From the NCBI GenBank assembly GCA_965247285.1, contig CBDFHD010000002.1, forward strand, positions 548,632 to 612,631: a stretch of 64,000 nucleotides of DNA, read 5' to 3'. Positions 13,440-57,463 of this stretch are shown here, one piece after another; position 1 is the stretch's first letter, and the number at the start of each line of letters is the position of its first letter. The notes beneath the pieces were generated by a model, which was not told where the DNA came from, made no database searches, and worked only from the letters and a program-made list of their open reading frames with translations. The position numbers were made by a program, and so were the translations under genes. The DNA comes from Candidatus Poribacteria bacterium. Lineage in GTDB: Bacteria; Poribacteria; WGA-4E; WGA-3G.

Positions 13440-13560
13440 AGGACTTACGCACGTTGCTCTTTTGTAGCATAACCTGTTAGGTTGTGCCAAGAAACCGTCT
13501 GCGTTTTTTATACGGTCTCTCTTTCAGGGCGCGGGCGATGCTCAAAATTGCGTAAGTCCT
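13440..13560. mobile_element. MITE-like element, 121 bp, perfect 12-bp terminal inverted repeats AGGACTTACGCA / TGCGTAAGTCCT (family A)
   Basis: Read from sequence; about 97 percent identical to the 57343..57463 copy; intergenic. Confidence 0.7.
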
Positions 13561-13749
13561 GTTTTAGACGCGAATGATACGAGTGTTGGTCCCACCTATC
13601 AATTCTAAATTAGCCTGATTCAGAGCCTACAGAAAAACCTGCGTCGCGAAAAAGACTCTGTCTTTTCTGAACAAATTCATTACTTATTTGCCTAACTTAA
13701 CAGAAAGGTGTATATTCAAAAAATTATCAACTGTTCGCGAGGAAGACGT

Positions 13750-15900
13750 ATGAAACGAAAACATGTTATTATAACCCTTTTCCTGTGTGCACTGGTGTTT
13801 TCATTGGCAGTCGTCCTAAATACTTGGACGCAAGAAGGACTTTCAAAAGAGGAGAAACGGTTCGACCTTGACCGGGATGGTGAACTCAGCGACGCTGAAA
13901 CCACTCTCATGATTCGGGTGATGCGACTTGAAACCCAGAGAGGTACTCAATTCAGCGAGAGCGAGATCCGTCAAATGCAAAGTGGAGAGCGAGATAGATC
14001 TCGCGGAAGAGGTGGGTTCGGTAGAAGGCGAGGTTCTAGGGGACCTTCAGGGCCACGCTTGAATCCGGAGCAGATCGCATTTAAGGATGGGGCAGCGACA
14101 ATCCCCGACCGAGAGACCTTCGAGAAACTGTCGTATCAGGGTTTAGAGGTGCGTATTGACACTCAACTTACCGGAATCGAATTTGTAAAGTTCCAGATTG
14201 AGAATACACATACACAAAACCCACAACTTTATTTTATGAATACGGAAACACATCGGTCGCACGGGAGTTTCATGAATGCTGCTGGTTTGGGACGAGGTCA
14301 AGGACAGATGCGGGGTGTGCTGAGTTACCGCCCACTTTTCGTGGCACCGAACGGTGAACCCGGGGTCTATACCTTTGAGTTTAATCCAAACGATGCATTC
14401 CCGTTTGAAGAGATCAAACTCGCACACGATCTGCTCGTCGCGAAAATGCTGTCGCTGAAGAATCGACTCGGTTATTGTCCGTTGTGGGGAGCGATCGACA
14501 TTTATAATCGCGAAAAGATATACTATGACGCGGCGGAATTTCCCGTATATTTTGAGGACGATCTCTATGCCAACATCGGTTACCTTCCGCTGAATCAAGC
14601 GGCATCATTCGGTCGGCTTCGTGTCTTGGAGGCAGATGAACGTCCCACGGTTCAGGACATCGTTATCTGTAAAACTCTACCTAACGAGATGCCACGAGTT
14701 GCCGGCGTTATCACAGGTGCTCGGCAAACGCCGCTTTCCCATGTCAACCTCCGTGCTATTCAAGACAAAGTCCCTAACGCTTTCATTACTAAGGCGTGGG
14801 AAAACGACGCGATTGCACCGCTTATTGGGAAATACGTCTACTATGGTGTAAACGCCGATGGTTTTGAAATTAGGGAAGCGACACTAAAGGAAGTGGAGAC
14901 CCATTTTGCTGATTTACGTCCGTCAAAAACCCAGAGACCCGAACGTGATCTCTCAGTTACGAAGGTTCTGCGGCTTGACAACATAGGGTTTGCTGACTCG
15001 TCACGTTTTGGTGTGAAAACGGCTAATCTGGCGACGCTCCGCACATTCGGATTCCCTGAAGGTACTGTGCCGAACGGGTTTGGGATACCATTTTATTTTT
15101 ATGATGAATTTATGAAGCACAACGGCTTCTATGAGAGGATTGAGAGTTTGCTCAGAGATCCGGTATTTCAGCGTGAACAGGACACAAAGGAAGCAGAACT
15201 GAAAAAGTTTCGGGTGGAAATCAAGAAGGGTGAAATGCCGGCATGGATGATGGACGCGCTTTCCGATTTACAGAGCGAATATCCTGAAGGAACACCTCTC
15301 CGGTGCCGCTCCAGCACGAACAACGAGGACCTGCCCGGTTTCAGTGGTGCGGGTTTATACGACTCCTTCACGCACCACTCAGACGAGGGGCACTTATCCA
15401 AGTCAATTAAGCAGGTGTTTGCGAGCCTTTGGAATTACCGAGCGTTTGAGGCACGTGATTTTTATCGTATTGACCATATCGCTACTGCTATGGGTGTACT
15501 TGTGCATCCCAATTTTGAAAGCGAATTGGCGAACGGGGTAGCTGTAAGCGATGATGTTGTGTATCAGACGACAGGAAATTATTATCTCAACACCCAAGTT
15601 GGCGAGGACCTCGTGACCAACCCTGAAGAACAATCTGTTCCGGAAGAGATCCTCTTGGATTGGTGGGATAGCAATAACTACCGAGTTGTGACGAGTTCTA
15701 ATCGCACATCCGACAACAAACGGATTCTAACGAGAGAATACTTACGCCAACTCAGTTTCTATCTCGGCACGGTACACAACAAATTCAGTCAGCTCTACAG
15801 GCCCATTTCGCCGACGAAAGTGTTCGCTATGGAGGTTGAATTCAAGATTACAAGCGACGGAAAGCTTCTAATCAAACAGGCGAGACCGTGGGGACAGTGA
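13750..15900 (+). CDS. membrane-anchored PEP/pyruvate-binding-domain (PPDK_N, ATP-grasp-like) protein
   Basis: N-terminal hydrophobic anchor (HVIITLFLCALVFSLAVVLN), EF-hand/dockerin-like loop DLDRDGELSDAE, RGG-rich segment RSRGRGGFGRRRGSRGPSGP, then PPDK_N-like region (IVICKTLPNEMPRVAGVITGARQTPLSHVNLRA...). Start placed at ATG 13750, downstream of the ORF-track start. Confidence 0.5.
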   Translation: MKRKHVIITLFLCALVFSLAVVLNTWTQEGLSKEEKRFDLDRDGELSDAETTLMIRVMRLETQRGTQFSESEIRQMQSGERDRSRGRGGFGRRRGSRGPSGPRLNPEQIAFKDGAATIPDRETFEKLSYQGLEVRIDTQLTGIEFVKFQIENTHTQNPQLYFMNTETHRSHGSFMNAAGLGRGQGQMRGVLSYRPLFVAPNGEPGVYTFEFNPNDAFPFEEIKLAHDLLVAKMLSLKNRLGYCPLWGAIDIYNREKIYYDAAEFPVYFEDDLYANIGYLPLNQAASFGRLRVLEADERPTVQDIVICKTLPNEMPRVAGVITGARQTPLSHVNLRAIQDKVPNAFITKAWENDAIAPLIGKYVYYGVNADGFEIREATLKEVETHFADLRPSKTQRPERDLSVTKVLRLDNIGFADSSRFGVKTANLATLRTFGFPEGTVPNGFGIPFYFYDEFMKHNGFYERIESLLRDPVFQREQDTKEAELKKFRVEIKKGEMPAWMMDALSDLQSEYPEGTPLRCRSSTNNEDLPGFSGAGLYDSFTHHSDEGHLSKSIKQVFASLWNYRAFEARDFYRIDHIATAMGVLVHPNFESELANGVAVSDDVVYQTTGNYYLNTQVGEDLVTNPEEQSVPEEILLDWWDSNNYRVVTSSNRTSDNKRILTREYLRQLSFYLGTVHNKFSQLYRPISPTKVFAMEVEFKITSDGKLLIKQARPWGQ

Positions 15901-15911
15901 GTTTTCAATTT

Positions 15912-16027
15912 AGGGCTTACGCAATTTTCTTATGAACAACGACTACCACACGCCGCTGGCGAGGTTTCAAACAGGGGTGCCTACCCGTTACTGAAAAAGA
16001 GTGCCAGCAAAAGAGGACGTAAGTCCT
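15912..16027. mobile_element. MITE-like element (family A variant) with TIRs AGGGCTTACGCA / ACGTAAGTCCT, carrying the TGAACAACGAC..GCCGCTGGCGAGG core
   Basis: TIRs read from sequence. The core is shared with the 34046..34160 element. Lies between convergent genes. Confidence 0.55.
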
Positions 16028-16037
16028 ATCAATATTG

Positions 16038-16063
16038 ACATGTGCGCTTTGCAGCGCACATGT
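16038..16063. repeat. perfect hairpin (11-bp stem, 4-nt loop) ACATGTGCGCT-TTGC-AGCGCACATGT between convergent genes
   Basis: Read from sequence; no downstream U-tract, so not a canonical intrinsic terminator. Confidence 0.5.
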
Positions 16064-16095
16064 ATCGGTTCTATAAGTTGGTTCAGTGACATGTA

Positions 16096-16845
16096 TCAAT
16101 TGGCTTTGAGTTTACCCCATGTCACCGCGAGCTTATCTGCCGCATCTACGGCGAGGATTGTGTTGAAGCCGGAATTCATAAATTCCTGGATTTCCTTTTG
16201 AGACTTCACCTTGTTGGAAATCCAGAGTTCGTCCATACCACCAATGAAATGAGATGAGCTAGAAGTCCGTCGATATCCAATATCAAGACTGGGTTCTCCT
16301 GTGACGTCAATGACCCCGCCCCCGGCGATTGGACCCCCGTCGTCTTCTTCACCATTGATATAGATAATCGCCTCTTTGCCATCCCATGTTGCGGCGACGT
16401 GACTCCATTCGCCTTCAGCAATCGTAGTTTGTCCGAGAAAATCTTTGACATGATACGTAGTCCAGACGAGTTTCTTTGAACCGTGGAATCCAAATTTCCA
16501 GCCGGCTCCGCCGTCCATCTCTACAATATTTTGCCAATTGTTAATGCCATCAGGGTTTACCCATGCGCCCACACTCATCGGGTCGGTGAGTTCTTTCAAA
16601 GGCGCAGCGTTTTCGATTGTAATAAACGTTCCGCCATCAAATTTAAATGCTTTGTCAAATTCGCCATCAATCCAAGATGCCTTTCCTTCAGCAGTACCAT
16701 CGTTTCCATGGTCTGAGAGGTCGGTGAGCGCGTCTCCTTTTCCCTCGTCAAATGTGGCGAGGAACACAATATCTTTCGGTAGCTCCGCGTATACGCTCCC
16801 AATACAGATTGTTAAAAGTAGGAGTGAATAAATTAAAGTTCGCAT
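16096..16845 (-). CDS. secreted LamG-like jellyroll protein
   Basis: Start moved to internal ATG (16845), which has SD AAGGAG 8 nt upstream and a signal peptide MRTLIYSLLLLTICIGSVYA. Laminin_G_3 signature FLATFDEGKGDALTDLSDHGNDGTAEG. C-terminus ...DKLAVTWGKLKAN. Confidence 0.8.
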   Translation of the reverse strand: MRTLIYSLLLLTICIGSVYAELPKDIVFLATFDEGKGDALTDLSDHGNDGTAEGKASWIDGEFDKAFKFDGGTFITIENAAPLKELTDPMSVGAWVNPDGINNWQNIVEMDGGAGWKFGFHGSKKLVWTTYHVKDFLGQTTIAEGEWSHVAATWDGKEAIIYINGEEDDGGPIAGGGVIDVTGEPSLDIGYRRTSSSSHFIGGMDELWISNKVKSQKEIQEFMNSGFNTILAVDAADKLAVTWGKLKAN

Positions 16846-17068
16846 TTTATAGCTCCTTATGAGGAATTTGCTATTAGCAAAACCTACTGATACCGGATTT
16901 CGGGTTTGGTTAAATGAGGGTATTGGTTCAAGAGTGATGCGAGAATTAGCGTGATACCCCTCTGGATCACGCTGCATCACATTTCAACGGTTATTCGTAA
17001 ATTTGACAAAAATTGTCAATCAAAAAACAAACGCAATCCAAATTTTAGAGGCAAATATGATACCCACT

Positions 17069-19309: not shown

Positions 19310-19390
19310 TATGGGTTAGTGCCTCCTTTTTAGGCATTTCTATGTGAAAGGCGGGGTCGAAAACCCCGCCATTGATTGCTTTCTCTGAAA

Positions 19391-21168: not shown

Positions 21169-21300
21169 GAAAGTCCTTTCGTTTCGGTGTAATTTAATTG
21201 AAGGGGTGCTCAGAATTCCATCTTCCGCACCCCTTAATTTGACACATTGGGGAAGTTTGTGGGTTGCCCGATCCGTGGATTTCCCCTTTTCATTTCTCAA

Positions 21301-21528: not shown

Positions 21529-21598
21529 TTATTTGTTAAAATTAATATTTCCAAGGTCAGCGTGTATCTCTATCCTTGAAAGTTGGTGTTCCCGGAGA

Positions 21599-22201: not shown

Positions 22202-22336
22202 GCTCAGAGTTCTCTTTCTTTTGTAGAAAAATCGTCTTAAATTAAAAGCACATGCAATGTGGAATTCTTTATGTAATTAGACACGCGAATTAGAAAAAGG
22301 TTCGTTTCTGAAAACATGAGAAACTTATTCCTTCTT

Positions 22337-23287: not shown

Positions 23288-23393
23288 CGGGACGACAGGT
23301 CTATAGGGGTTTCCCTTGTTTCGCAGGTTTCCTAAAATCATGCTCCCTTTCGTTCAAGAAAACTGCCCCAGAAAAATAAGCCGAAGCATTTAG

Positions 23394-23478
23394 CACGTAA
23401 TGTAATGGAGTGCGGATATACGGAATGGAGCATGGATGCTCCAACCCACCTGACCGAACCGCAAGGAAAATTAAAAAT
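23394..23478 (+). repeat. intergenic leader-family element, copy 1 (GTAATGTAATGGAG loop hairpin ... AACCGCAAGGAAAATTAAAAA)
   Basis: Read from sequence. Its A/T tail contains the stop codon of the minus-strand TRAP gene. Confidence 0.6.
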
Positions 23479-25375
23479 ACGGTTCTGAGCGTTTCTGAAG
23501 GATGTACACAACCGCGACGAGTACTATAGCGATGACGAACGTCCAGATGTTATAGACGTATGCCAGGAACGCCGCAAGCGCAAGCAATATCCACTCATAC
23601 CAGCGCATCTTGCGGACGAAAAAGCCCACCGTTACAATGGAGAAGATAACTGTGCCCACGACAGCCGATACCACAGATAGTGCGTATTCCACCGGTGTGC
23701 CTCCTGTGAACAGGATGTGGGTATACGCAAACAGCAGCGGCATGATATAGAGAAGTTTAGAAAACTTGAAGCATGCCCATCCTGTTTTCCATGGATCGGC
23801 ACGGGCGATAGCTGCGGCTGCGTAAGCTCCCAAGGCGACCGGGGGCGTGATGTTGGAGTCTTGACTCAACCAGAAGATAATGAGGTGTGCAGCAATAATC
23901 GGTATGCCCATCTCTGGGGTTGTCAGGATCGGTACAGCGAGTTCAGAGGTAATCAGGTAGGCGGCAGTCACAGGAATTCCCATACCCAGAACTAAAGATG
24001 CCGCCGCAAGAAACAGAATTGCGATAACCTTGCTATCCTCCGCAACCAACAGCACTAAATTTGGGAATATCCGTCCTAAGCCTGTTAAATCTATAACAGC
24101 AACAATGATGCCGATAGTGCCAACCGCACCGCCAATGGCGATCGAATTCTTTGCCCCGGTCACCATCGCTTCCCAGATACGTTTCGGTGTGAGTCGTGTC
24201 TCTTTTCGGAAATAACTCACCGCAATTGTGGCAAGAATCGCGAAGAATGCCGCCTTATAAGCGGTATAGCCAGCGATTAAGATGCCGACAAGCGTCAGCA
24301 ACGGCAGTAAGTAATACCAACCACTTTTAAGGAGTGGCAGAAGTTTCGGGATTTCTGCGTCTGGTATCCGTTCTATTCCCTGCTTTTTCGCTTCGAAATG
24401 TACCATTACCCAAACGGAAAGGAAATAGAGAATCGCTGGCACGATGGATAAGAGGGCAATTTTACTATAGGGGAGTCCTGTCCGTTCTGCCATGAGAAAC
24501 GCACCTGCTCCCATCACGGGTGGTAGAAATTGCCCGCCTACGGAGGCGGAAGCTTCGACTGCACCAGCGATGTGCGGACGAAAACCGCTCCGTTTCATCA
24601 AGGGGATCGTGAACGTTCCAGTAGCGACTGTGTTTGCAATCGCACTTCCCGCGACAGAGCCAAAAAAACCGGAGGTCATGACCGAAACTTTCGCCGCTCC
24701 GCCAGTTGAACGTCCTGCTATCGACATCGGTAGGTTGATAAAGAATTGACCGACCCCCGATTTCTCCAGAAAAGCTCCGAAGAAGATAAAGAGAATCACG
24801 TACGTCGCCATCACGTTTGCCATGATGCCGAAGACCCCGGCTTGACTGAAAAAACAGTATTCGATAATCCTGCGAGGCGTAAGCCCACGGTGTGAGATGA
24901 CATCCGGCAAAAAACGACCGAAAAGGGCATATAGGATACCGATCACAGCGATAATAGGCAGTGCCCAACCGACCGTCCGACGGCTCACTTCAAAACTAAT
25001 CAGAATCGCGACCGCGCCTACGAAAATATCGAGTTGACTGTAATTGCCTGCCCGATTGGCGAGATTCGGGTACTCTACAATCCAGTAGCCGATGGTGAAG
25101 ATGCTGAGGGCAATCATGCCCAGGTCTATGAGTGATGGACGGGAGGCTGGGGAGTTCTTCCGACATCGGTAAAAGATGCCGATCAGCGCGAAGGTCAGCA
25201 GGAGATAGAAACCGAGATGGAATTGTTCACTGGCACTTCCAAACCCTGCACTGTAGATATAAAAGAGGACGAGGGCAGCTGCACCGAGTTCAAAAATCCA
25301 TTTATATATTTTTTCTAATTCAGTCCGTTGTGTGGTTTCAAAGCCAGCAACTTCTTTTGGTTCAGTCTGTGTCAT
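23471..25375 (-). CDS. TRAP transporter fused permease (DctQ-DctM-like, 4TM plus 12TM fusion)
   Basis: Highly hydrophobic 635-aa multi-pass protein with TRAP large-permease-like pattern. Start moved to ATG 25375 (SD GGAGG 5 nt upstream; MTQTEPKE...). Confidence 0.7.
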   Translation of the reverse strand: MTQTEPKEVAGFETTQRTELEKIYKWIFELGAAALVLFYIYSAGFGSASEQFHLGFYLLLTFALIGIFYRCRKNSPASRPSLIDLGMIALSIFTIGYWIVEYPNLANRAGNYSQLDIFVGAVAILISFEVSRRTVGWALPIIAVIGILYALFGRFLPDVISHRGLTPRRIIEYCFFSQAGVFGIMANVMATYVILFIFFGAFLEKSGVGQFFINLPMSIAGRSTGGAAKVSVMTSGFFGSVAGSAIANTVATGTFTIPLMKRSGFRPHIAGAVEASASVGGQFLPPVMGAGAFLMAERTGLPYSKIALLSIVPAILYFLSVWVMVHFEAKKQGIERIPDAEIPKLLPLLKSGWYYLLPLLTLVGILIAGYTAYKAAFFAILATIAVSYFRKETRLTPKRIWEAMVTGAKNSIAIGGAVGTIGIIVAVIDLTGLGRIFPNLVLLVAEDSKVIAILFLAAASLVLGMGIPVTAAYLITSELAVPILTTPEMGIPIIAAHLIIFWLSQDSNITPPVALGAYAAAAIARADPWKTGWACFKFSKLLYIMPLLFAYTHILFTGGTPVEYALSVVSAVVGTVIFSIVTVGFFVRKMRWYEWILLALAAFLAYVYNIWTFVIAIVLVAVVYILQKRSEPYF

Positions 25376-25493: not shown

Positions 25494-25604
25494 TAGTAAA
25501 GCCCGAAAATATGTGAACATACGGTTTAGGAACTTCCCTTCTCGCTGGCGAGGTTTCTAACCTCGCCCACGCTAATGTGTATAGATAATTATAGGTTTTA
25601 CTAT
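25494..25604. mobile_element. MITE-like element family B (TIRs TAGTAAAGCCC / GGTTTTACTA) carrying the CGCTGGCGAGG hairpin
   Basis: About 80 percent identical to the 34046..34160 element; both ends read from sequence. Confidence 0.55.
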
Positions 25605-26799: not shown

Positions 26800-26891
26800 C
26801 AGTCAGCAATTAGCAATCAGCCATCAGTAAAGCGGCTTCTGAGCAAATCGGAAGTCCGCGTGCTTCTATTTCTTCTGTTAAAGAGAAACCG

Positions 26892-26980
26892 TAGCCTGCA
26901 ACAACGGCGCAGGCGGATATACGGAGAGGCACGTGAGCATCTAAACCCACCTGACTGAACCGCAAGGAAAAATTAAAAAC
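26892..26980 (+). repeat. intergenic leader-family element, copy 2 (GCCTGCAACAACGGCGCAGGC hairpin ... AACCGCAAGGAAAAATTAAAAA)
   Basis: Read from sequence; immediately followed by a near-consensus promoter. Confidence 0.6.
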
Positions 26981-27015
26981 TTGACATTTTGTTTTGCATA
27001 ATATATAATTTAGGT
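26981..27015 (+). promoter_or_regulatory. near-consensus sigma70 promoter TTGACA, 17 nt, TATAAT upstream of the DtxR-family regulator gene
   Basis: cttgacattttgttttgcataatatataat read from sequence. Confidence 0.5.
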
Positions 27016-30118: not shown

Positions 30119-30587
30119 TACTACCCACAACCTAAAGGTTGGGGCTTCGGCTTCATAGCGACTGCGTTCTCACCAGAGGTTTGAACGTCTTATTGCCGCT
30201 CCACCCGCAGGCTCTTATTCCGAATCAGATCGGTTTTATCTGGTTTAGGTCCAGGGTACCCCAGCCTGCAAAATGATAAATGAGGAGGGTAGCGATACAA
30301 GGCGTAGGGTTATTACTCCACAATCGTCTTACATGAACGCTACCTAATAATTGATGTTTTACAAGGTCTCACTTGCAACTCGCCACATACCGTATCACGG
30401 GTAAGGATAGGACTCTACCAAGTGGTAGAGGTGATACTCCTATCCAGCAAGTTACATATAGAATACCATAATTTTAGGTAAATGTCAAGTTTATTTTGGT
30501 TTCCATAAACCCTAAGCCGTCTACATCCCGCAAGCTAAAGCATGGGGATTTGACGGAAGAGCGTTAAGGTGATAGAACAAAGTCCGT

Positions 30588-30675
30588 AGTTCGTAATGAA
30601 ATGGAGAGCGGGTTTCAGAACGGAGCGTCAAAGTTCAAACCCACATTGTTTAACCGCAAGGAATAATTAAATTAC
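30588..30675 (+). repeat. intergenic leader-family element, copy 3, ending directly at the ATG of the ABC ATPase
   Basis: TCGTAATGAAATGGAGAGCGG...TTAACCGCAAGGAATAATTAAATTAC-ATG. Sits within a 557-bp gap that splits the metal-transporter operon. Confidence 0.6.
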
Positions 30676-33949: not shown

Positions 33950-34299
33950 ATGATTACAATGACGTATAAAGAATATATCGCTCAAATCGTTTATAGCGAA
34001 GAAGACGGTTGTTTCATCGGAGATCTTGTAGGTATTCGTGATATATAGTAAAGTCCAAAAATATGTGGACAGTTAGTCAGTGAACAACGACCCCACCGCC
34101 GCTGGCGAGGATTGTATCCTCGCCTCTTTAGAGCGTCCAAGTAATTATAGGCTTTACTATAATTAGTTTTCACGGTGATTCTCTTGAAGAGATTCGTACC
34201 GCTTTTGAAGAATCCGTTGATGATTACCTCTTAACGTGTCAAGAATTCAATCGCTCACCACAGAAGCCTGTTTATGCCAAAGAGACGACAGCGGACTGA
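33950..34299 (+). pseudogene. HicB-family (UPF0150) antitoxin gene interrupted by a 115-bp MITE
   Basis: 5' part 33950..34045 encodes MITMTYKEYIAQIVYSEEDGCFIGDLVGIRDI, then TAG formed by the MITE end. 3' part 34168..34299 encodes FHGDSLEEIRTAFEESVDDYLLTCQEFNRSPQKPVYAKETTAD. Together they give the HicB N-domain pattern (..EEDG....DLPG....GDTLEEA...). Confidence 0.6.
34046..34160. mobile_element. MITE-like element family B (TIRs TAGTAAAGTCC / GGCTTTACTA) inserted in the hicB-like gene
   Basis: Carries the TGAACAACGACCCCACCGCCGCTGGCGAGGATTGTATCCTCGCC core hairpin; homologous to 25494..25604. Confidence 0.6.
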
Positions 34300-37673: not shown

Positions 37674-37943
37674 AATTGCACGTTTACATCCTACTTGTAG
37701 GCGCGACCTCCCGGTCGCGATACATCTTCGCTGGCGAGGTTTTCAACCTCGCTATGCCAACTGTACACGTAACACCGTTCAATACTAATTGATAGAGAGA
37801 ATAAAGATGTCTCAGCCTTCCACTGTTCCTACGCGAGTTCAAGAAACCCGATACCTTGTTTTGGATGATCGCCTCATTGACGAGGCGATCGCGGCGGAAC
37901 TTACCCTTATCAAGCAGCATGTTGAAGATGTCGCATGCTGTTT

Positions 37944-43945: not shown

Positions 43946-43987
43946 TTGGTTAAACCGCAACGAATTTGCGAACTTGTACACGAACAC

Positions 43988-44077
43988 GAAGCCTGCAACA
44001 ACGGCGCAGGCGGCTCTACATAGAAGCACGTGAAGTCCCCAAACCGCGACACTTAACCGCAAGGTAAAATTAAAAAA
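43988..44077 (+). repeat. leader-family element copy (GCCTGCAACAACGGCGCAGGC ... CTTAACCGCAAGGTAAAATTAAAAAAA)
   Basis: About 80 percent identical to copy 26892..26980. Its A-tract provides the ...FF-stop end of the minus-strand FemAB-like gene. Confidence 0.6.
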
Positions 44078-45107
44078 ACTGCATCCATGTATAAATTTGG
44101 CGAAGTGCGCCCTCACTCTTTGTCCACAATGCTCTTTTCAGCGGTGAAATTACCTTTGTGTAACTGGCGAAATCTGTTCTTATGGCGCGATACTGTTCCT
44201 TATGCGCAATTAACCCTGTGTTCTCTGATGGCGATGCGCCGAAATCTACCCATTCGTATTGTTCACGACACGCCCGTGCGATGATGTGGTGGAAAATCGC
44301 GTTGTTAGGTCGATATTTCAAGAATGCTGGCACAGATGCTTCACACCACAACGTTACGGTCTTATTGAAGCGTAGATAGAGCAATCCTGCGATAACAGTG
44401 CCACGGTATGTAGCGATAGCAAGTTTGGCGATTTTCCGCTGCAGGAGTGTCTGCATAAGTGCCTGCGGTTTCGGCGTGCCACCTAACCGTTTTACTGTCA
44501 TGAGATACATGTCGTAAAAGGTGGATAAAGCCTCTTCACTGTCTGTGTCCGTGACTGTCACACCCGATTTCTCTGCCTTCCTGATCGCGCCCCGTACCCG
44601 TTTGTTATAGGCGTGCCAGAGGGATTCAACATCTCCGTTCGTTTTCAGAAAATGCGTGAAGTGATCTGTGCGTTTGTAGCCCATTTCAACGAATAGATCG
44701 CCGTAAGTCACCATTTGCTTAGGTGTCAGTGTCCAACGAATTTCACACCATCCCTTTGCTGCTGCTGCGGATTCGATGGATGTTATCAGTGATTCAGGGT
44801 TTATTTGCACTGATTCGATGAGGTGTACACCTCCAAATAAGTTCCACGGCATTGAATGCCATAGACGGATGCCCGGTATCGGTTGAAAGACGAAGGCGGG
44901 CAGCCCTCCTATCACTGAGTCATCTTGATTGATGAGTAGGTAAGTCGGGCGTAGGGGTTGGGTAACCCAACCCCTACCAAACGCGCCCGCTAATGCATCT
45001 CGCCACGCGAGACTTTGGAAAGCAGTCGTATCTGGAGATTGCCGAAGAATGGCATCCCATTTATCCTGATTTTGAGGGGTCAAAGAATCTAAGGTGTACA
45101 CATGCAC
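44070..45107 (-). CDS. FemAB-like / GNAT-fold acyltransferase (Acetyltransf_6-type)
   Basis: About 345 aa with the duplicated-GNAT FemAB-like pattern; assignment by recollection. Confidence 0.5.
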   Translation of the reverse strand: MHVYTLDSLTPQNQDKWDAILRQSPDTTAFQSLAWRDALAGAFGRGWVTQPLRPTYLLINQDDSVIGGLPAFVFQPIPGIRLWHSMPWNLFGGVHLIESVQINPESLITSIESAAAAKGWCEIRWTLTPKQMVTYGDLFVEMGYKRTDHFTHFLKTNGDVESLWHAYNKRVRGAIRKAEKSGVTVTDTDSEEALSTFYDMYLMTVKRLGGTPKPQALMQTLLQRKIAKLAIATYRGTVIAGLLYLRFNKTVTLWCEASVPAFLKYRPNNAIFHHIIARACREQYEWVDFGASPSENTGLIAHKEQYRAIRTDFASYTKVISPLKRALWTKSEGALRQIYTWMQFF

Positions 45108-45147
45108 ATCTTGTAGGAGCGAGCTCCAGCTCGCGATTCCTATAGAG

Positions 45148-46250: not shown

Positions 46251-46295
46251 CAGTTCGATGGACGTGCTTAGGAAATTGACATGCCTTTCCATAGA

Positions 46296-46362
46296 GTCGT
46301 CCTCCATTACATTTCGGACTTGCGATCTTTAGTTAATTTTCTAATTTTCCTTGCGGTTTGGT
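46296..46362 (-). repeat. leader-family element, rearranged or opposite-orientation copy (GTCC-GAAATGTAATGGA-GGAC hairpin; CCGCAAGGAAAATTAGAAAATT)
   Basis: Read from the minus strand. Confidence 0.5.
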
Positions 46363-46401
46363 AAAGTAGGTTAGAGCATTGACATTTATCTCCATTTACC
46401 A

Positions 46402-47569: not shown

Positions 47570-47630
47570 GCTATACAGAGGCACGTGAATGCCTAACCAA
47601 CGTTACTTAACCTCAAGGTAAATTAGAAAA
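47570..47630 (+). repeat. leader-family element copy (GGCACGTGAATG ... CTTAACCTCAAGGTAAATTAGAAAATT)
   Basis: Abuts or overlaps the stop of the minus-strand LamG gene. Confidence 0.5.
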
Positions 47631-48530
47631 TTATCTCCGTCTGGCTTTGATATGTCCCCATGTAACGCTCAGGTGGCTTGCAGAAGGACTGACATCAAGC
47701 CCTGTGGCTTCCATGTTGTTCTGGACTTCTGCTGCACTTAGAACGCGATCGTAAATTCGGAATTCGTCGATATATCCCTGAATTGTATCGCAATCGCATC
47801 CATCTGACCGATCCCCGATGCCGAGGAGGAGCCCTCCCTTTGGGATTTTACCGCCCTTCATGGCATACTTTTTTTCGAGTTTTCCATTCACATAGTAGTG
47901 AACCATGTTGCCATCGTAGGTGCCGGTGAGGTGCAGCCACTCTTCAAGTGGAATATCCTCCAGTACATTGTCTTGTGCTGCCACCGTTGATTGACCACCC
48001 GCTCTAATGAAGAAACCGTGCTGGTTATCGTCATCATCGTAATAGAGGCTTACGACTGCGCTGTTCGTTGGCATATCGTCAAGTGAGATAATCCGGTTCC
48101 AACTGTCATCCAAGGCGTTAATATAGACCCAACATTCCAGGGTGATTTCCTCCCAATCACGGTCGATTTTGGGTGGGTTTGAATCTTCAACGAGAAAGCG
48201 GTCAACACTGCCATCAAAAAGAATGCACTCACCGACTTTACAATCGGAGGCGGGTGCGAGTTCGGGATCCCCGTGGACAGCTGCCGCGAGTCCTGACAAG
48301 AGATCTACCGCCTCAGTTTTAATTTTTACTGTGTCTTTGTCGAAGGTCCAATAGGCGACTAAGCCATTTTCAACCGCTCCGATGATTGCCTCGGTGGGTT
48401 GCGCGTTCCATGCAAGGAACGCGATAAGGAGAAGGGCGAATGCGCGTTTGGCATTCGCAAAGACTGTAAAGAACCGTGAATTTTCCACAAAATATCTGCT
48501 CTGAAAACGGGTGCCGTTCTGTAGACGCAT
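47631..48530 (-). CDS. secreted LamG-like jellyroll protein
   Basis: Laminin_G_3-like pattern; C-terminus ...SASHLSVTWGHIKARRR carries the family motif. Confidence 0.7.
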   Translation of the reverse strand: MRLQNGTRFQSRYFVENSRFFTVFANAKRAFALLLIAFLAWNAQPTEAIIGAVENGLVAYWTFDKDTVKIKTEAVDLLSGLAAAVHGDPELAPASDCKVGECILFDGSVDRFLVEDSNPPKIDRDWEEITLECWVYINALDDSWNRIISLDDMPTNSAVVSLYYDDDDNQHGFFIRAGGQSTVAAQDNVLEDIPLEEWLHLTGTYDGNMVHYYVNGKLEKKYAMKGGKIPKGGLLLGIGDRSDGCDCDTIQGYIDEFRIYDRVLSAAEVQNNMEATGLDVSPSASHLSVTWGHIKARRR

Positions 48531-50076: not shown

Positions 50077-50220
50077 TTTCTTCTCCTTTTATGGAAATTA
50101 TACCAATGATGGCATAATTTGCCTTTACTTTACATTCTTGTAAGCATTGCCTACGTATTCTTTGTGTGTTTTCCGTTGCAACGTGGGAAACCAAAATCAG
50201 TTTCCTATATCTGTTTGTCT

Positions 50221-51318
50221 TTATGTATCACCGAGAATTGCCTCATAAATTTGAGCATATCCACTTCGATCGGATGTGAATACAACATGCTTGCCATCCG
50301 GACTGAAAGACGGATGTGGATGTGTATGCTGTGGTGCGTAAACCTGAATTGGACCAGCGGCATACGGGAACGGTCCGTTCCAATGCTCGCCAATAGACGA
50401 GGCGTTGGGATAGCATAACGTCTGAGGTTCGCCAATACCATCACGTGGATCGAAAATTTGGATACCAATATCTGGGAAGTTAGTGTCTGCTACCATAAGT
50501 GTTCCAGCAGAATTACTAATGGCATGCCATGCGTTGAACGTTGTCACTTGTCGGGCTATTCCGGTATCGGCGTTGATACACCTCACGCCGCGGGGCCAAT
50601 CGACAAAAGCGAGTTCACGCGTTCCTGGGATCCAGGTTTCATGTGTGATCCATTCGTTCTTTTCGACGTTACGGGCATAGAGACGACGGTTACCCGTTCC
50701 GTCGCGATGGATTACCCACACTCGATCAGTAAGGGGACCCGCATAGTAGAGCAGGTTGGAATCGTCGGGACAGAATTGAAGGTGTCCGATACTCTCTCTC
50801 CGCAAGATGATATCGTGCCCGCCGGTGTCTGTGTCTATAATAGCGAGTGCGGATTCTTTACCGATGTTGAATCTGACAGCCCACCATCGATTATCGTGAC
50901 TCAAGGCGGTAGTGCCCATAGCGGCGGCTACCATACCTTCTTCCCGCATCGCCGTTGCTGCGAAATTGACAAGTTCGTGCGCTTCAAGCGTCTCCAAATC
51001 TACTTTCCATCCGCTTGTGCCTGCTGTGAAGTAGACTGCTTTTCCATCGCGCGAGGGATGCACCGACCACTCGGCGAGGTCAGGTCTATCTGTTAATTGG
51101 CGGAGTTCACCCGTGGTGCGTTCTTCTGCGAATATCTGCGGTGTCCCTGTTCGGTATGAGACAAATATGAGCCGTTGCATCGCGTCGTCATACGCAGGTA
51201 TGATGAAGAATGGATGGTGGTGCAGCGCGGATGCAGTCGTCACCTGTCGGATTTGTGTTCCGGTGCGTTGGTCGACAAAGGTTCGAGATTCAGAAGGATG
51301 AACTGTGCCTTTCGCCAT
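50221..51318 (-). CDS. beta-propeller protein, oligogalacturonide-lyase-like / TolB-like
   Basis: Start moved to ATG 51318 (MAKGTVHPSE...), which has the conserved leader CCGCAAGGAAAATTAAAAGA upstream. The ORF-track 5' extension to 51390 is probably not translated. Confidence 0.45.
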   Translation of the reverse strand: MAKGTVHPSESRTFVDQRTGTQIRQVTTASALHHHPFFIIPAYDDAMQRLIFVSYRTGTPQIFAEERTTGELRQLTDRPDLAEWSVHPSRDGKAVYFTAGTSGWKVDLETLEAHELVNFAATAMREEGMVAAAMGTTALSHDNRWWAVRFNIGKESALAIIDTDTGGHDIILRRESIGHLQFCPDDSNLLYYAGPLTDRVWVIHRDGTGNRRLYARNVEKNEWITHETWIPGTRELAFVDWPRGVRCINADTGIARQVTTFNAWHAISNSAGTLMVADTNFPDIGIQIFDPRDGIGEPQTLCYPNASSIGEHWNGPFPYAAGPIQVYAPQHTHPHPSFSPDGKHVVFTSDRSGYAQIYEAILGDT

Positions 51319-51410
51319 TCTTTTAATTTTCCTTGCGGTTAAACGACGTGGTCTGTCTTTGAGCGTCCTTTTCTTAAATCCGTCTTCCATTTCATTTCAG
51401 ACTACGTTTT
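51319..51410 (-). repeat. leader-family element copy providing the 5' leader of the 50221..51318 gene
   Basis: Minus strand reads CGTAGTCTGAAATGAAATGGAAGACGG...CGTTTAACCGCAAGGAAAATTAAAAGA-ATG. Confidence 0.6.
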
Positions 51411-51610
51411 TGTTACTACTTTAATTTGGTTCCTTGATAACGCTGGGTCTCCTATAATTCAGACTACACAGATGCCACCGCTACAGGACTGAAGAGGGAT
51501 ACCTGTTGGAAGCAAAACAGAAACGGAATCCTTACATTGTCCCGTAAGCCTCTATAGGCTTGCATAGGGTCGGCGGGGATGGTGCCCCGCCAGACCAATC
51601 ATTGAATTTC

Positions 51611-52609
51611 TTATTCTTCAAAGGCGGCATCAAAGGCAACAGCAGAAGGTTCAAAATCATAACCCTTGACAGCACCACACGATTCGCGTGCGCCGTGTTC
51701 TCTGTCCATGCCGCTGTCCTCCCACTCAATGGAGAGTGGACCGTCGTATTCCATGTGGTTGAGGGCGCGGATGATTTCTTCGAAGTTAATATTACCACGA
51801 CCGATAGAACGGAAGTCCCAATTTCTCCGGGCATCCCCGAAGTTCAGATGTCCGCCGAATACACCCGATAAGCGGGGTGTATCTGCCCACCAGACATCTT
51901 TCATGTGGACGTGATAAATCCGATCACTCAGTCGTTCAAGGAATGCTACATAGTCAACGCCTTGATAGCCGAGATGGCTTGGGTCGTAGTTAAATCCGAA
52001 CGCTTCTCTACCGTTGACCGCCTCAATGGCACGTTCTGCGGTGACGATGTCAAAGGCAATTTCGGTCGGATGAACTTCGAGTCCAAATTTGACACCGACT
52101 TCATCAAAGACATCGAAAATCGGGTTCCAGCGGTTGGCGAAATCTTCAAAACCGGCATCAATTTGTCCTGGGTCGTTCGGAGGAAAAGAGTACAGAAGAT
52201 GCCATATTGAGCTACCGGTGAAACCGTTGACGACACTTACACCAAGTTTCGCGGCGGCTCGCGCTGTGTTTTTCATCTCTTCGGCGGCGCGTTCTTGAAC
52301 GCCTGCAGGATCTCCGTCACCCCAGATCGCCTCTGACACGATGCCTTGATGTCGGCCGTCAATATTATCGCAGACTGCCTGTCCGACAAGGTGATTACTG
52401 ATTGCCCAAACTTTGAGTCCGTATTTTGCGAGTAGATCGTGTCTGCCTTGGCAGTAACTATCGTCTGTGAGTGCCTTGTCAACTTCAAAATGATCGCCCC
52501 AACAGGCGAGTTCTAAGCCATCATAGCCCCATCCACTCGCTTTTTCTGCTAATGCCTCTAATGTTAAGTCTGCCCATTGGCCTGTAAAGAGTGTTACAGG
52601 TCTTGCCAT
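51611..52609 (-). CDS. sugar phosphate isomerase/epimerase (xylose-isomerase-like TIM barrel)
   Basis: AP-endonuclease-2 / xylose-isomerase-like pattern ([12 protein letters not shown]..., HVHMKD). Confidence 0.75.
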
Positions 52610-52759
52610 AGTGTATCTCCTTCATAATTGCCCCAACTTCGGGGTAATTTCTTGCCTGGTGCTGTATCAACTTTCTTTTTCTGTAGGAGCGAGCTCCAGC
52701 TCGCGAGGCCTACATCACAAATAGAGTTCCAGACACTTGGCAGATAGATAGAACAAAGA

Positions 52760-53590
52760 CTAAGTCTGTTCTTTTAAACGCTCAAGCTCCTCTCGGAGTT
52801 GTGCGATCTCCATTTCCGCTTTCTGGCGTGCCGAGGCTTCCTGTTCAGCGCGTGTTTCAGCCGTTTGTGCGCGTGTGGCTTCCTGTTCAGCGCGTGTTTC
52901 AGCCGTTTGTGCGCGTGTGGCTTCCTGTTCAGCGCGTGTTTCAGCCGTTTCAGCTCGTGCTAATGCTAACTCCGCGTATGCTAATGCTGACTCCGCCGGC
53001 GTTTGCAGCCAATTATCCCCAACCGGATCGTAAATACCTAAACCCACATCACCAACATAGAAATCTAAACCGAGAGCAGTGGAGTGCAGACCCCCATTTG
53101 GACCTGCCGAAATCGGGACATACGAACCATCAACCAAGGTAAAACCCATTATAGGCGACGGTAAATATAGACCCTCCGCATCATACAAGAAATAGTCTTG
53201 GATCCCCAATAAAGCGTAGAGTTCCATCTTGTGACCTAAGTCGTTGCGATAGGTGCTTTTGCTGGAAAACTCCATCACAAAATCAGGTACCTTTCCCTCC
53301 TCCCAGACGAGATACGTCCGTCGGAGTTTCTTACCTAAGCCAAAAGCGACCAGAACATCCGGCGAAACCGATTTACGCGGGTCTCCTTCCACGTAATACA
53401 TGAGTATATCACCAGAGATATAGACCCCTGGATTTTCTTCAAAATGGGTGTCAAGGACTTGTAAAGTCCGCATGAGGATACGCCTGTGAAGGTCGCTGAC
53501 GGCCATGGGTTTTCCATCCTCTTCGGGGTAAAGTTCCGCGTCCTCTGTAGGGGCGTAGGGGATATGATTCCTGTTTCTGTAGGTGTCCAT
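52760..53590 (-). CDS. Uma2-family (DUF820) putative restriction-endonuclease-like protein with repetitive C-terminal tail
   Basis: Start moved to ATG 53590 (SD GGAGGG; MDTYRNRNHIPYAPTEDAELYPEEDGKPMAVSDLHRR...). C-terminus is (AETRAEQEATRAQT)n, then coiled-coil. Confidence 0.6.
   Translation of the reverse strand: MDTYRNRNHIPYAPTEDAELYPEEDGKPMAVSDLHRRILMRTLQVLDTHFEENPGVYISGDILMYYVEGDPRKSVSPDVLVAFGLGKKLRRTYLVWEEGKVPDFVMEFSSKSTYRNDLGHKMELYALLGIQDYFLYDAEGLYLPSPIMGFTLVDGSYVPISAGPNGGLHSTALGLDFYVGDVGLGIYDPVGDNWLQTPAESALAYAELALARAETAETRAEQEATRAQTAETRAEQEATRAQTAETRAEQEASARQKAEMEIAQLREELERLKEQT
52836..52961. repeat. perfect tandem repeat, 42 bp x 3 (third copy diverges at its end), inside the Uma2 C-terminal coding region
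   Basis: GGCTTCCTGTTCAGCGCGTGTTTCAGCCGTTTGTGCGCGTGT repeated; read from sequence. Confidence 0.85.
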
Positions 53591-53660
53591 CAGTGTCCCT
53601 CCCATTTCGTGAGATACCTGAATACACGAGCATTTTGTTCTATATAACCTTACGAAAAGA

Positions 53661-54833
53661 TTATGCCGGCGGCGCATACCTCGCATCGATCCACGCGCGT
53701 TGTTTACCGCTGTCGACAGCCGCATTGATGAAATGTACCCCGCGAGCCCCATCTTGAACGGTTGGAAAATCTGTGTCGAATTCAGTCGGGGTTTCGCCTG
53801 ATATTTTTGCGGCTATTGTCCGCCCTGCGTTTACATAAACATTTGCGAATGCCTCAATGAACGCTTCAGGGTGTCCGAAGGGTATCCGCGAATTGTGTTG
53901 GACGACCTCCGACAGATAATCGTTCCCACGTTTGTAAACATGTTCGGGACCATCTGGAAAACGGACATAGAGGTAGTTCGGATTTTCTTGTTGCCATTCC
54001 AGCGACGCGTCAGTGCCGTAGACACGGATACGCAAATTGTTCTCTTCACCTACCGAGATTTGTGACGCATAAAGTACCCCGCGGACTCCGTTTTCATAGT
54101 GCACGAGTAGGTTTCCATCGTCTTCTAACAAGCGTCCCTCTACAAAAGTGGTCATATCCGCACAGATTTCTTCGATGTCGAGTCCTGTGATATAGTGTGC
54201 CAAATTCTCGGCGTGGGAACCGATGTCCCCGATACACGAGGAGGCACCCGCTTGATTCGGATCGGTACGCCAGACGGCTTGTTTCGCGCCTTCGTTCTCT
54301 AAAAATGTGGCGAGCCAGCCTTGAGGGTATTCTACGACGATTTTGCGAAGTTTTCCGAGTTTTCCGTCTTTCACGAGTTCGCGTGCCTGCTTCACCATCG
54401 GATAGCCTGTGTAGTTGTGTGTGAGCGCAAAAACGACATCGTGTTCTTTGACGAGGCTGCATAGCGTTTCAGCATCGGCGACTGTCGTTGTCATCGGTTT
54501 ATCACAGACGACATGAAACCCGGCTTCAATAAAGGTTTTGGCGACATCGAAATGGATATGGTTCGGTGTCACAATTGAGACGAAGTCAATGCGTTCGCCA
54601 TCGGGTAGCTGACGCTCTTTCTCTGCCATTTCTTGGTAAGACCCGTAGACTCGATTTGCATCGAGGAAGAGTTCAGCACCTTGTTGTCGGGATTTTTCGG
54701 GTGATGATGAAAACGCACCCGCAACGAGTTCAATTTCTCCGTCAAGTGCTGCGGCTTTACGATGGACGGCACCGATAAACGCGTCCGGTCCACCACCTAC
54801 CATGCCGTAACGTATTTTCCTGTTCAGTGGCAT
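53661..54833 (-). CDS. Gfo/Idh/MocA family oxidoreductase
   Basis: IRYGMVGGGPDAFIGAVH Rossmann motif; CDKPM motif. Confidence 0.85.
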   Translation of the reverse strand: MPLNRKIRYGMVGGGPDAFIGAVHRKAAALDGEIELVAGAFSSSPEKSRQQGAELFLDANRVYGSYQEMAEKERQLPDGERIDFVSIVTPNHIHFDVAKTFIEAGFHVVCDKPMTTTVADAETLCSLVKEHDVVFALTHNYTGYPMVKQARELVKDGKLGKLRKIVVEYPQGWLATFLENEGAKQAVWRTDPNQAGASSCIGDIGSHAENLAHYITGLDIEEICADMTTFVEGRLLEDDGNLLVHYENGVRGVLYASQISVGEENNLRIRVYGTDASLEWQQENPNYLYVRFPDGPEHVYKRGNDYLSEVVQHNSRIPFGHPEAFIEAFANVYVNAGRTIAAKISGETPTEFDTDFPTVQDGARGVHFINAAVDSGKQRAWIDARYAPPA

Positions 54834-55427
54834 CTTACGTGTTTTCTCCTTTACTGTGTAATAAATATGGGCTTGTAAGCTTCGCCCTATAAGGATATTT
54901 TGATTCCAAAATACATTATCTCATATTTGAGTGTTTTTTTCAAGATTTTTGTTCAGAAGCATTCAGTTATCAGCACTCAATAAGGTCGCAATAACGGAGC
55001 AGAAGCATTCAGTTCTTCTGTAGGAGGGAACTCCGATTCCCGACAGACTCCAGTAAAGGATAAGAAAATGCTGTGAGCTTCAGAGGATTCAGAGTAAAAT
55101 CTGAAAAGTGGTGGGTTCAAAAAAAGTTGTGAATATAGACAATGACTGGGTTTCGAGTGGTTTTGATAGGAGATTTCTGAAACGCTTACTCTGAAACTTC
55201 AGTTCTTATGGATAACAGATGGGAAAAAAATAATTTTCTGTAAAGTGTAACATTTTTTCAGATGTTCTGAAAGCCTCGCGTTTCTTGTGGTGTATCGTGG
55301 TGTTAACAGTGGTCTGAAAGCACTACAAATATTATACTATATTTATCAATAGTTTTTCAAGATAAAAGTCAGAGCCATTAACATCAGGTAATCCGTGAAG
55401 GGGACGTTTTTTGTTTCACTGCCATAT

Positions 55428-56225
55428 CTAAGAGGGAGTTAGCATTGCGGCTATGTCTTCCGGTAGTTTAATCTCATGTTTCTGCTCAAAGTCGGCAACG
55501 TTTTCATAGTCTTTGCGAAACTGTTCAGTGATGATATTTTCCTGCTTGTCTCTGGCAGTCGTAAGATCTTCTTTGGATTTTTCCCATTCTTGCAAGCGTA
55601 CAAACATCATACCGCGATTGTAGTATGGCTCTGCTAAATCGGGTTTGCGTTCTATCGCCACGTTATAGTCTTTGATGGCACGTTCATACTCGCCTTTTTT
55701 ACTGTAGACATTACCACGATTGTTGTAGGGATGGACAAGGTCAGGTCTCAGTTCTATTGCTTTGGTATAATCTATGATTGCGAGATCATACTCTTCTCTT
55801 TCATAGTAAACAATACCACGGTTGTAATAGGCGTAAGCAAAACTGGGATCAAGTTCTATTGCTGTGTTATAGTCTTTAATAGCAGGCTCTATCTCACCTT
55901 TGAGTTTATAAACTATCCCGCGATTGTTATAGGCTTCTGGCAAATTTGGGTCAAGTCTTATCGCTGTGTTACAATCTTCAAATGCGCGATCATAGTCCTT
56001 TTTCATGCGGTAAGCTGCGCCGCGATTGCTGTATGCCTCGGCATAGTTTTCCTTGCGCCTAATAGCTGTGTTGAAGTCTTCAATAGCGCGGTCAATTTCA
56101 CCTTTATTACCATAAGCGATGCCACGATAGTTATAGGGTGTGGCAAAACTTGGTCTTTCTATAATTAGTTTGGTAAAACGTTGGATGGTGCTATCGTTAG
56201 GATCCTGTACAACTTCGGGCTTCAT
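55428..56225 (-). CDS. TPR-repeat protein (cytoplasmic)
   Basis: Seven or eight canonical 34-aa TPR units (AYxNRGxxYxxKGEYDRAIxDYNxAIxLxP). Confidence 0.85.
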   Translation of the reverse strand: MKPEVVQDPNDSTIQRFTKLIIERPSFATPYNYRGIAYGNKGEIDRAIEDFNTAIRRKENYAEAYSNRGAAYRMKKDYDRAFEDCNTAIRLDPNLPEAYNNRGIVYKLKGEIEPAIKDYNTAIELDPSFAYAYYNRGIVYYEREEYDLAIIDYTKAIELRPDLVHPYNNRGNVYSKKGEYERAIKDYNVAIERKPDLAEPYYNRGMMFVRLQEWEKSKEDLTTARDKQENIITEQFRKDYENVADFEQKHEIKLPEDIAAMLTPS

Positions 56226-56259
56226 GTTTATGTCTCCGTTATGTTTGGTATTGAGTGTA

Positions 56260-56943
56260 TCAAGTCTTCAAAGTATCTTCAATCAACTCCATTTCGGCTT
56301 GATAAATTCCTATAGAGGTTTTCTGGTGGCTGCTCTGGTCTCTAATGAACCCGTGGAGATCGTTGTAGACGGTCTGTGTTGAGATACCGTGCTGTTTTTG
56401 CAGATGATCTAATATCGGTTCTTTGAGCGATTTAGGAATGTCAATGACATCATACTGTCCTGATTCGAGAAAACCTTTGGGAGGTCGAACAAATATGCTT
56501 TTCTGTGTTATGACACGGTTTCTTGGATTCTGTGGTTCCCTAATTTTGTAATCTTCATTTGTCTTTTCAGTTCTTTGAAATAAAATTATCCTGCCGGGTT
56601 TGTCAAGGAAGCCGTCGCATGCGAAGAAAAGGGCTATGTGGTTATCGGTTGTAAAGTCTATTAGATTGGTATGGCCGCCGTAGTGTTGAAGTTCCGTCAA
56701 GATTTCAAAGGGATCTGTTTCGTGGGTATAGTCTTTCGCTGCTTCGAGCATTCGCTCTTGGATGGCTTCTATACCAAACTCCTCTGTCCCAATTTCTTCC
56801 CGGCATTCACGCCACAGGCTTGAAGATACCTTCTCATAATGTTGAGGTTCGCCGCGATAGATGAAGTCACCATCGGCGGTCATTTCTGCTATCCTACCGA
56901 TTATCTCCAAAATCCTGTTCAGTTCGGTTTCTTGTGTGTTCAA
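56260..56943 (-). CDS. FRG-domain protein
   Basis: FIYRGEPQHYEKVSSSLWR ... LQHYGGHTNLIDFTTDNHIALFFA matches the FRG signature (FRGq...L.PS..R ... AQHYG.PT.LLDwT.sp.vAl.FA). Confidence 0.65.
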   Translation of the reverse strand: MNTQETELNRILEIIGRIAEMTADGDFIYRGEPQHYEKVSSSLWRECREEIGTEEFGIEAIQERMLEAAKDYTHETDPFEILTELQHYGGHTNLIDFTTDNHIALFFACDGFLDKPGRIILFQRTEKTNEDYKIREPQNPRNRVITQKSIFVRPPKGFLESGQYDVIDIPKSLKEPILDHLQKQHGISTQTVYNDLHGFIRDQSSHQKTSIGIYQAEMELIEDTLKT

Positions 56944-57036
56944 ACGCTGTTCTCCACGATATGGATTCTTTCCGATATTAAATCATACAAGAAATAGACA
57001 ATCAGCATCGCGTCTAATCCGCGCGGCGCGAATTGA

Positions 57037-57264
57037 TCAGAAGATAAGGTCATCACCGCTTACCTCGGACAAGTCTAATACCGAAGGGTTTTCTGTTTTA
57101 AGTTTCTCAGCATAAATATCGTCCCATGTCTGTTGAGTGTAGGGACGGATTAATATGCCATTGTCTACCCTTTCGATCACGACACACGATTCTAACCCTA
57201 ATTCCTTCACCCAGTCGAGGGGCAATTTGATTTTATGATCAGTCTCTAATGAAAGTGTTTTCAT
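57037..57264 (-). CDS. AbrB/MazE/SpoVT-type swapped-hairpin DNA-binding protein (antitoxin-like)
   Basis: KIKLPLDWVKELGLESCVVIERVDNGILIRP; 75 aa. Confidence 0.45.
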   Translation of the reverse strand: MKTLSLETDHKIKLPLDWVKELGLESCVVIERVDNGILIRPYTQQTWDDIYAEKLKTENPSVLDLSEVSGDDLIF

Positions 57265-57342
57265 AATATCTACCTCTTCCTATAAGCAGTTAGAGAAAGT
57301 ATATCACGACTTGCGGTGAATTCTCAATTGTTTTAGTAGAAT

Positions 57343-57463
57343 AGGACTTACGCACGTTGCTCTTTTGTAGCATAACCTGTTAGGTTGTGTCAAGAAACCG
57401 TCTGCGTTTTTTACACGATCTCTCTTTCAAGGCGCGGGCGATGCTCAAAATTGCGTAAGTCCT
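57343..57463. mobile_element. MITE-like element family A, second copy (perfect 12-bp TIRs AGGACTTACGCA / TGCGTAAGTCCT)
   Basis: About 97 percent identical to 13440..13560. Confidence 0.7.

Follow-up and report, generated by a model that had tools for sequence, protein, structure and literature searches.

The 64-kb stretch of a Candidatus Poribacteria chromosome analysed here (64,000 nucleotides (nt), in the following called the window) contains two families of short repeats, A and B. They are very probably MITEs (miniature inverted-repeat transposable elements), that is non-autonomous DNA transposons, and each family would be mobilised in trans by a DDE transposase whose gene lies elsewhere in the genome or the population. 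Poribacteria are an uncultured phylum, chiefly associated with sponges, and proteins encoded in the window have near-identical counterparts on long Poribacteria contigs. An earlier note, made from the letters of this DNA, had listed five elements, and all five turned out to be real MITEs at their places because of their terminal inverted repeats (TIRs), their target duplications, the comparison of filled with empty orthologous sites and the full-length insertion sequences (ISs) that match them. The elements measure 110–123 nt, below the limit of about 300 nt for MITEs, and contain no open reading frame (ORF) of note; one of them interrupts a gene. TIRs occur in both families, the target duplication has a fixed length (5 base pairs (bp) in family A, TA in family B), filled and empty sites are clean for the copies A1 and B2, and copies are dispersed (at least 73 Poribacteria loci for family B and at least 120 metagenome loci for the ends of family A). 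One family A copy belongs to a chimeric, re-mobilised subfamily. Transposases of the IS701 type and the IS630 type would have acted on the copies of the window, and the order of nesting and deletion proposed below is the one which the sequences suggest. Loci and contigs from other genomes, which served as the comparison set, carry L numbers.

Family A and its IS701-type ends

Family A is represented by A1 (13439-13561) and A2 (57342-57464), both 123 nt long, and by a chimeric variant of 118 nt (15911-16028); none of them is assigned to a strand and all are non-coding. A1 and A2 are 96.7% identical across 122 nt, as the approximately 97% of the earlier note had implied. Their 12-nt ends (AGGACTTACGCA / TGCGTAAGTCCT) are perfect, as was claimed, but the true ends comprise 13 nt (TAGGACTTACGCA / TGCGTAAGTCCTG in A1), one base more on each side (T/C-AGGAC...GTCCT-A/G), which leads to the lengths of 123, 123 and 118 nt. 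The 12-mer end has four exact matches in the window, all at the ends of A1 and A2, and the observed count of near-matches was reached by no shuffled sequence. The IS701-type ends of the variant are degenerate (AGGGCTTACGCA / GACGTAAGTCCT) with one and two mismatches. A GTAG-tagged hairpin (TTGTAGCATAACCTGTTAGGTTGTGCC) lies within the core of A1, and the complete element folds into a long hairpin (z = -4.7 versus shuffled controls).

A1 is flanked by the 5-bp target duplication TTTTA (13434-13438 and 13562-13566). Four relatives (L210, L211, L212 and L214) lack the element and have a single TTTTA, and therefore A1 is a recent, clean 123-nt insertion; in one of the relatives without A1 the product of a flanking gene is 97% identical. 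A2 has TAGAA on both sides (57337-57341 and 57465-57469) and is part of a 1085-nt strain-specific segment (56989-58073), in place of which relatives whose flanking DNA is 97% identical have 118 nt of other sequence. The variant was inserted long ago and is common to three related lineages, since it occupies one and the same site in L210, L211 and L212 and is bordered by the duplication TCAAT on both sides. Accordingly, the recent mobility proposed earlier holds for A1 and for the family B copy B2 but not for the variant, and a comparison of relatives reveals insertion polymorphism for A1 and both family B copies, B1 and B2, each being absent from some of them, but not for the variant. The site of the variant keeps accumulating repeats in L212, where the orthologous copy (4631-5077) has gained two more insertions, among them a GTAG hairpin and a second right end of the IS701 type.

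Metagenomes scanned for the family A end pair yielded at least 120 loci, and 123 unique copies among the matches listed were analysed for duplications. A perfect 5-bp duplication directly outside the 13-nt ends was found in 61 of them in one and the same register, and about 27 further copies fit after a shift of one base, while the other registers reached 0-14. TA beside the ends had been considered as the duplication and was rejected on the basis of this count. Thus the search for target duplications which the earlier note had recommended gave 5 bp for family A, and TA for family B as described below.

The search for a transposase with the same TIRs was likewise successful in other Poribacteria, with an IS701-family partner for family A (L064) and an IS630-family partner for family B (L029). 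L064 contains a 1091-bp element bounded by TAGGACTTACGCA...TGCGTAAGTCCTA and encoding an ORF of 322 amino acids (aa), which scores 350 bits against the NCBIfam model 'IS701 family transposase' (transpos_IS701_2, cut-off 250 bits). Its motif CCLRWKIEQLHRELK is close to CAIRWKIEEFHREIK of ISPlag1, and relatives with 49-50% identity are found in Acinetobacter, Moraxella, Nodularia and Planktothrix plasmids. One IS on an Acinetobacter baumannii plasmid has the ends TAGGACTTACGCAT...ATGCGTAAGTCCTA. ISPlag1 from Planktothrix, a 1306-bp element of the IS701 group, has CAGGACTTACGCA... as its terminal repeat (PMC2464740), and ISAba11 from the same IS701 family generates 5-bp direct repeats (PMC7885321). 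Family A and this ISAba11/ISPlag1 branch therefore have identical termini (TAGGACTTACGCA in L064 and in the A. baumannii plasmid IS, CAGGACTTACGCA in ISPlag1) and 5-bp direct repeats in common. In contrast to the ISs of the branch, which are about 1.1-1.3 kb long and possess a single DDE ORF of 322-337 aa, family A is 118-123 nt long and non-coding, and shares just the 13-nt termini with them, the 5-bp duplications being typical of the branch. The 197-bp remnants of ISPlag1 in Planktothrix are also different, as they were described as deletion relics and not as a propagating MITE family. Judged by ends shared with an IS701 element and by its 5-bp duplication, family A is a MITE which uses the ends of the ISAba11/ISPlag1 branch of the IS701 family. 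The occurrence of the same 13-nt end in Poribacteria, cyanobacteria and Acinetobacter helps to annotate both this IS branch and its MITEs.

An origin of A1 from the L082 element, which carries tnpB and has the same ends, was considered and rejected: L082 is a nested insertion, because three TnpB copies share their own right end whereas their flanks differ. TnpB genes of the IS200/IS605 type were observed in related Poribacteria at L082 (1908-3525), L064 (6615-7823, minus strand) and L021 (1-800); they share the right end ...GTCTATCAC, and the L082 copy resides within an A1-like MITE shell bounded by IS701-type ends.

Family B and its IS630-family parent

The two complete family B copies of the window, B1 (25494-25603, plus strand, 110 nt) and B2 (34046-34159, plus strand, 114 nt), have ends of 9-11 nt (TAGTAAAGYCC / GGYTTTACTA). 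The earlier note gave these ends correctly but counted one base too many on the right, as this base belongs to the TA flank and the elements end at 25603 and 34159. B2 is surrounded by a TA duplication (34044-34045 and 34160-34161) and separates the 5' portion (33950-34045) of a gene of the hicB antitoxin family (33950-34299, plus strand) from its 3' portion (34162-34299). Removal of 34046-34161 rejoins a HicB-family antitoxin of 77 aa, which is 96% identical over the full length and without gaps to intact 77-aa proteins. The empty site CGTGATATAATCAG exists in the syntenic loci L001, L002 and L003, and the window reads CGTGATATA[114 nt]TAATTAG instead. These are exactly 116 extra nucleotides, i.e. 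the element plus the duplicated TA, and B2 has thus disrupted an antitoxin gene which relatives possess in intact form. A hicA toxin gene is not obvious beside the 77-aa hicB, either in the window or in two close relatives (L001 and L006, 6001-6234 / 10001-10234), and therefore the disruption may be without consequence. Being absent from relatives with 96-97% identical neighbouring gene products, A1 and B2 are both suitable as strain markers. The neighbours of B1 on either side are the divergent DctM and GFO/IDH/MocA genes; the near-identical strains L004 and L005 possess this copy, and the more distant pair L006 and L007 does not.

One genome per species was scanned for the 20-nt left end of family B, and at least 78 loci were obtained. 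Among the matches listed, 73 of 78 are Poribacteria assemblies or contain a full element of the Poribacteria type, and the remaining five, from unrelated bacteria, consist of the 20-mer without the rest of the element. Family B is thus abundant in Poribacteria genomes and occurs in no other named phylum among these matches. The same scan led to the rejection of a cyanobacterial origin of the window, for which its short tandem repeats had seemed to speak, in favour of Poribacteria. In the copies listed from other genomes the left end follows TA in 72 of 81 cases (TTA in 66), complete copies are succeeded by TA in 53 of 54 cases (TAA in 48), and 52 of the 54 have TA at both sides. Family B inserts at TA, preferably in the context TTAA, and duplicates it. 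The lengths of these copies range from 110 to 227 nt, except for one of 1354 nt.

This long copy (L029, OZ251998.1) is flanked by TA and encodes a protein of 384 aa that scores 169 bits against the NCBIfam model 'IS630 family transposase' (cut-off 100 bits) and possesses Pfam DDE_3 and HTH domains. B1 and B2 are collinear with its first ~72 nt and last ~47 nt. Family B, whose ends are shared with this IS630 element and whose insertion at TA duplicates the dinucleotide, is probably an internal-deletion derivative of the 1.35-kb IS, having retained about 72 nt on the left and about 47 nt on the right. The L029 element carries a long subterminal inverted repeat; its stubs would meet in family B, giving rise to the hairpin GGCGAGG-loop-CCTCGCC. 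The inner inverted repeat of L029 was also considered as a separate IS nested in a family B shell, which was rejected as TA flanks are missing and the same arrangement exists in three species; it is read as a long subterminal repeat of the parent, although this is not fully settled. In L059 (about 400-620) and L077 (about 450-680) there are short elements which have the inner inverted repeat of this IS630-type parent at their borders (ATGAAGATTAA...TTAAACTTCAT) and the GGCGAGG hairpin at their centre. The loop of a GTAG-type hairpin is their insertion site, and they may represent a second derivative type of this parent.

A profile built from 30 family B copies of other genomes was used for an nhmmer search of the window and detected, apart from B1 and B2, nothing but a partial remnant (37721-37772, plus strand), which matches the profile positions 46-100 with an E value of 1e-4. 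This remnant is a stand-alone hairpin (CGCTGGCGAGGTTTTCAACCTCGC) without terminal repeats, possibly together with a decayed internal fragment of family B, and it lies at the border of a 105-nt indel among relatives. The 105-nt stretch that starts with the hairpin (37721-37825) is present in the window and in L007 and missing in L006, and it has no recognisable terminal repeats.

Insertion at TA is also known from RUP, the repeat unit of pneumococcus. Family B resembles RUP in size, in the IS family of the parent and in the presence of many copies. The sequence and the phylum are different, and family B differs furthermore by a full-length parent whose two ends align with the whole MITE and by a central hairpin, the loop of which holds additional short repeats in many copies. 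RUP is a MITE of about 107 nt with terminal repeats like those of IS630-Spn1, a member of the IS630 family, which is thought to move RUP in trans (PMC3049150).

Mobile elements, palindromes or regulatory sequences

Several observations weigh against two MITE families mobilised in trans. A homologue of neither partner transposase is encoded in the 64-kb window (best tblastn E value 0.016), as the earlier note had already supposed, and the one full-length copy seen of each parent belongs to another Poribacteria species; both transposase types do occur in other Poribacteria genomes. Mobility is read from sequence comparison, and no transposition event was observed. A2 has no clean empty site among the relatives compared, and neither has B1, whose site in L006 and L007 is occupied by 16 nt of unrelated sequence and whose left flank is TG instead of TA. 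The L064 element is flanked by the 6-bp repeat ACTATA and not by a 5-bp repeat. The cores of A1, A2 and the variant have nothing in common with L064 beyond ~13-17 nt at the ends; the family A cores are thus unrelated to the interior of L064, and family A is not the parent IS after a deletion, a feature which is not required of a MITE.

A spread of the repeats as repetitive extragenic palindromic (REP)-like hairpins by a REP-associated tyrosine transposase (RAYT), in place of DDE transposases, is very unlikely. It would agree with the GTAG-tagged hairpins of this genome (for example at 45113 and 52683), with the one inside the A1 core and with the hairpin CGCTGGCGAGG..CCTCGCC, which also stands alone, away from the ends of B or A. 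REP elements, however, are GTAG hairpins of 20-40 nt with neither TIRs nor target duplications, whereas the whole elements of 110-123 nt have TIRs, duplications of fixed length (TA or 5 bp) and DDE partners of full length that carry the same ends. Only the nested sub-modules are REP-like, and for these hairpin modules, not for the whole elements, a RAYT may be responsible.

Still less probable are conserved regulatory sequences at fixed positions, such as terminators, small RNAs or leaders, in which the inverted repeats would reflect RNA structure. The conserved site of the variant in three related lineages, the mostly intergenic location of the copies and folds more stable than shuffled controls in three of four elements (z -2.8 to -4.7) are in line with such a function. 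It is contradicted by the empty sites, as close relatives differ in the presence of A1, B1 and B2; furthermore, B2 interrupts a coding sequence, every copy has different flanks with target duplications, and the whole window gave no Rfam match at gathering scores.

The elements are comparable to Nezha and other cyanobacterial MITEs, which are also short, non-coding, equipped with TIRs, shown to be mobile by filled and empty sites and linked to an IS by shared ends. Nezha, however, is characterised by ISNpu3-like ends, and its template is about 138 nt long with a 10-bp direct repeat (CATTATCTAC), versus 5 bp and 2 bp in families A and B; in this comparison of direct repeats, the different duplication length points to a different parent IS.

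The elements were also sought outside the chromosome. Plasmid sequences gave no blastn match with A1 and B2, and no relatives of the IS630-type and IS701-type transposases were found in viral contigs. A scan of the viral contigs for A ends revealed one element, shared by two contigs, whose core is unrelated, and the scan for B ends a single chance match (L009). Exact-sequence protein look-ups for three ORFs of the window found no match, probably because start codons were called differently. No published description of families A and B was found in a literature search that was narrow and not aimed at Poribacteria. Both are new families of known MITE kinds; they leave the current view of how MITEs work unchanged and represent ordinary mobile DNA in a little-studied phylum.

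Nested modules and other repeats of the window

The earlier note had also proposed that the variant and one family B copy contain the same core and that modules have been shuffled between elements. The core common to the variant and B2 is confined to its left part (TGAACAACGAC..GCCGCTGGCGAGG), as the CCTCGCC arm is missing from the variant and another short module takes its place. The interior of the variant consists of an IS630-derived piece (TGAACAACGACTACCACACGCCGCTGGCGAGG) and this further short module (CAGGGGTGCCTACCCGTTACTGAAAAAGAGTGCC). Since the B2 stretch GAACAACGACCCCACCGCCGCTGGCGAGG aligns with AAACAACAACCCCTCCCTCGCTGGCGGGG from the left subterminal region of the IS630-type parent, the shared module is native to family B. 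Shuffling is thereby borne out, both by this piece from the left end of the parent and by IS701-ended composites which were re-mobilised.

Three loci document such composites. In L065 a family A shell encloses the left end of a family B element with TA in front of that end, and in L021 the hairpin follows a family A end. L080, which comes from a different locus in another species, resembles the variant, contains the entire hairpin and is bordered by a 5-bp duplication of its own (GAATT), from which it follows that the composite was inserted at least twice as a unit. On this sequence evidence the variant is a member of a chimeric subfamily that combines ends of the IS701 type with a core derived from IS630 and that was re-mobilised as a unit. 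Presumably a B-type element or its hairpin landed in an A-type shell and was trimmed, and the composite would afterwards have been copied onward via the A-type ends. A common descent of A and B from one ancestral element has next to no probability: TAG begins both families and a hairpin is possible in both (L021 and L080 for family A), but their ends go with transposase families that are unrelated and duplicate their targets differently. The module can be aligned to the left subterminal part of the IS630-type element and is lacking in the majority of family A copies, A1, A2 and the L064 element among them, and the B end of L065 is physically nested in an A shell. The re-mobilised chimera illustrates how the interiors of MITEs get reshuffled.

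The short repeats in the hairpin loops of family B, the hairpins standing alone and the GTAG-type hairpin, which is found in the A1 core as well as in one family B subfamily, indicate that nesting is common in these genomes. It is tempting, though the idea is rather less than an even bet, to regard the cores of Poribacteria MITEs in general as products of serial nesting of small mobile modules, with the loop of the GGCGAGG/CCTCGCC hairpin as preferred landing site and with composites copied onward as units. With the same reserve, the modules involved might be IS630-type MITEs, IS701-type MITEs, GTAG-type hairpins, a 'GGGGTSCC..CACCCGTTAYTG' module and one TnpB element. If serial nesting is true, one shell can bring sequence within reach of a second, unrelated transposase.

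Further repeats are scattered over the window. A dispersed repeat of about 95 nt ending in AACCGCAAGGAAAATTAAAA is found at 23384-23480, 26885-26981, 30580-30675 and 43982-44078 (plus strand) and at 51318-51412 (minus strand), with partial copies at 46284-46383 and 47593-47636 (minus strand). Two of the copies run precisely up to a start codon (30676; 51390 on the minus strand), and no gene follows the others. The repeat has no Rfam match, and its consensus fold is a stem of only 4 bp, three pairs of which show compensatory changes; a leader RNA is conceivable, as is a repeat of a different kind. GTAG-tagged palindromes of the REP type (GTAGGAGCGAGCTCCAGCTCGCGA) are located at 45113-45136 and 52683-52706, with variants near 37697, 55017, 62117 and 40326 (minus strand). 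Runs of 9-nt tandem repeats (AATCCGCGT-like) exist in both orientations at 57496-57600, 58052-58100, 58314-58361, 58506-58640 and 62269-62320; they surround a PD-(D/E)XK gene (57611-58030) in a segment which varies between close strains. Finally, at least five 21-nt tandem repeats (52835-52960) are situated within the ORF 52760-53752 on the minus strand.

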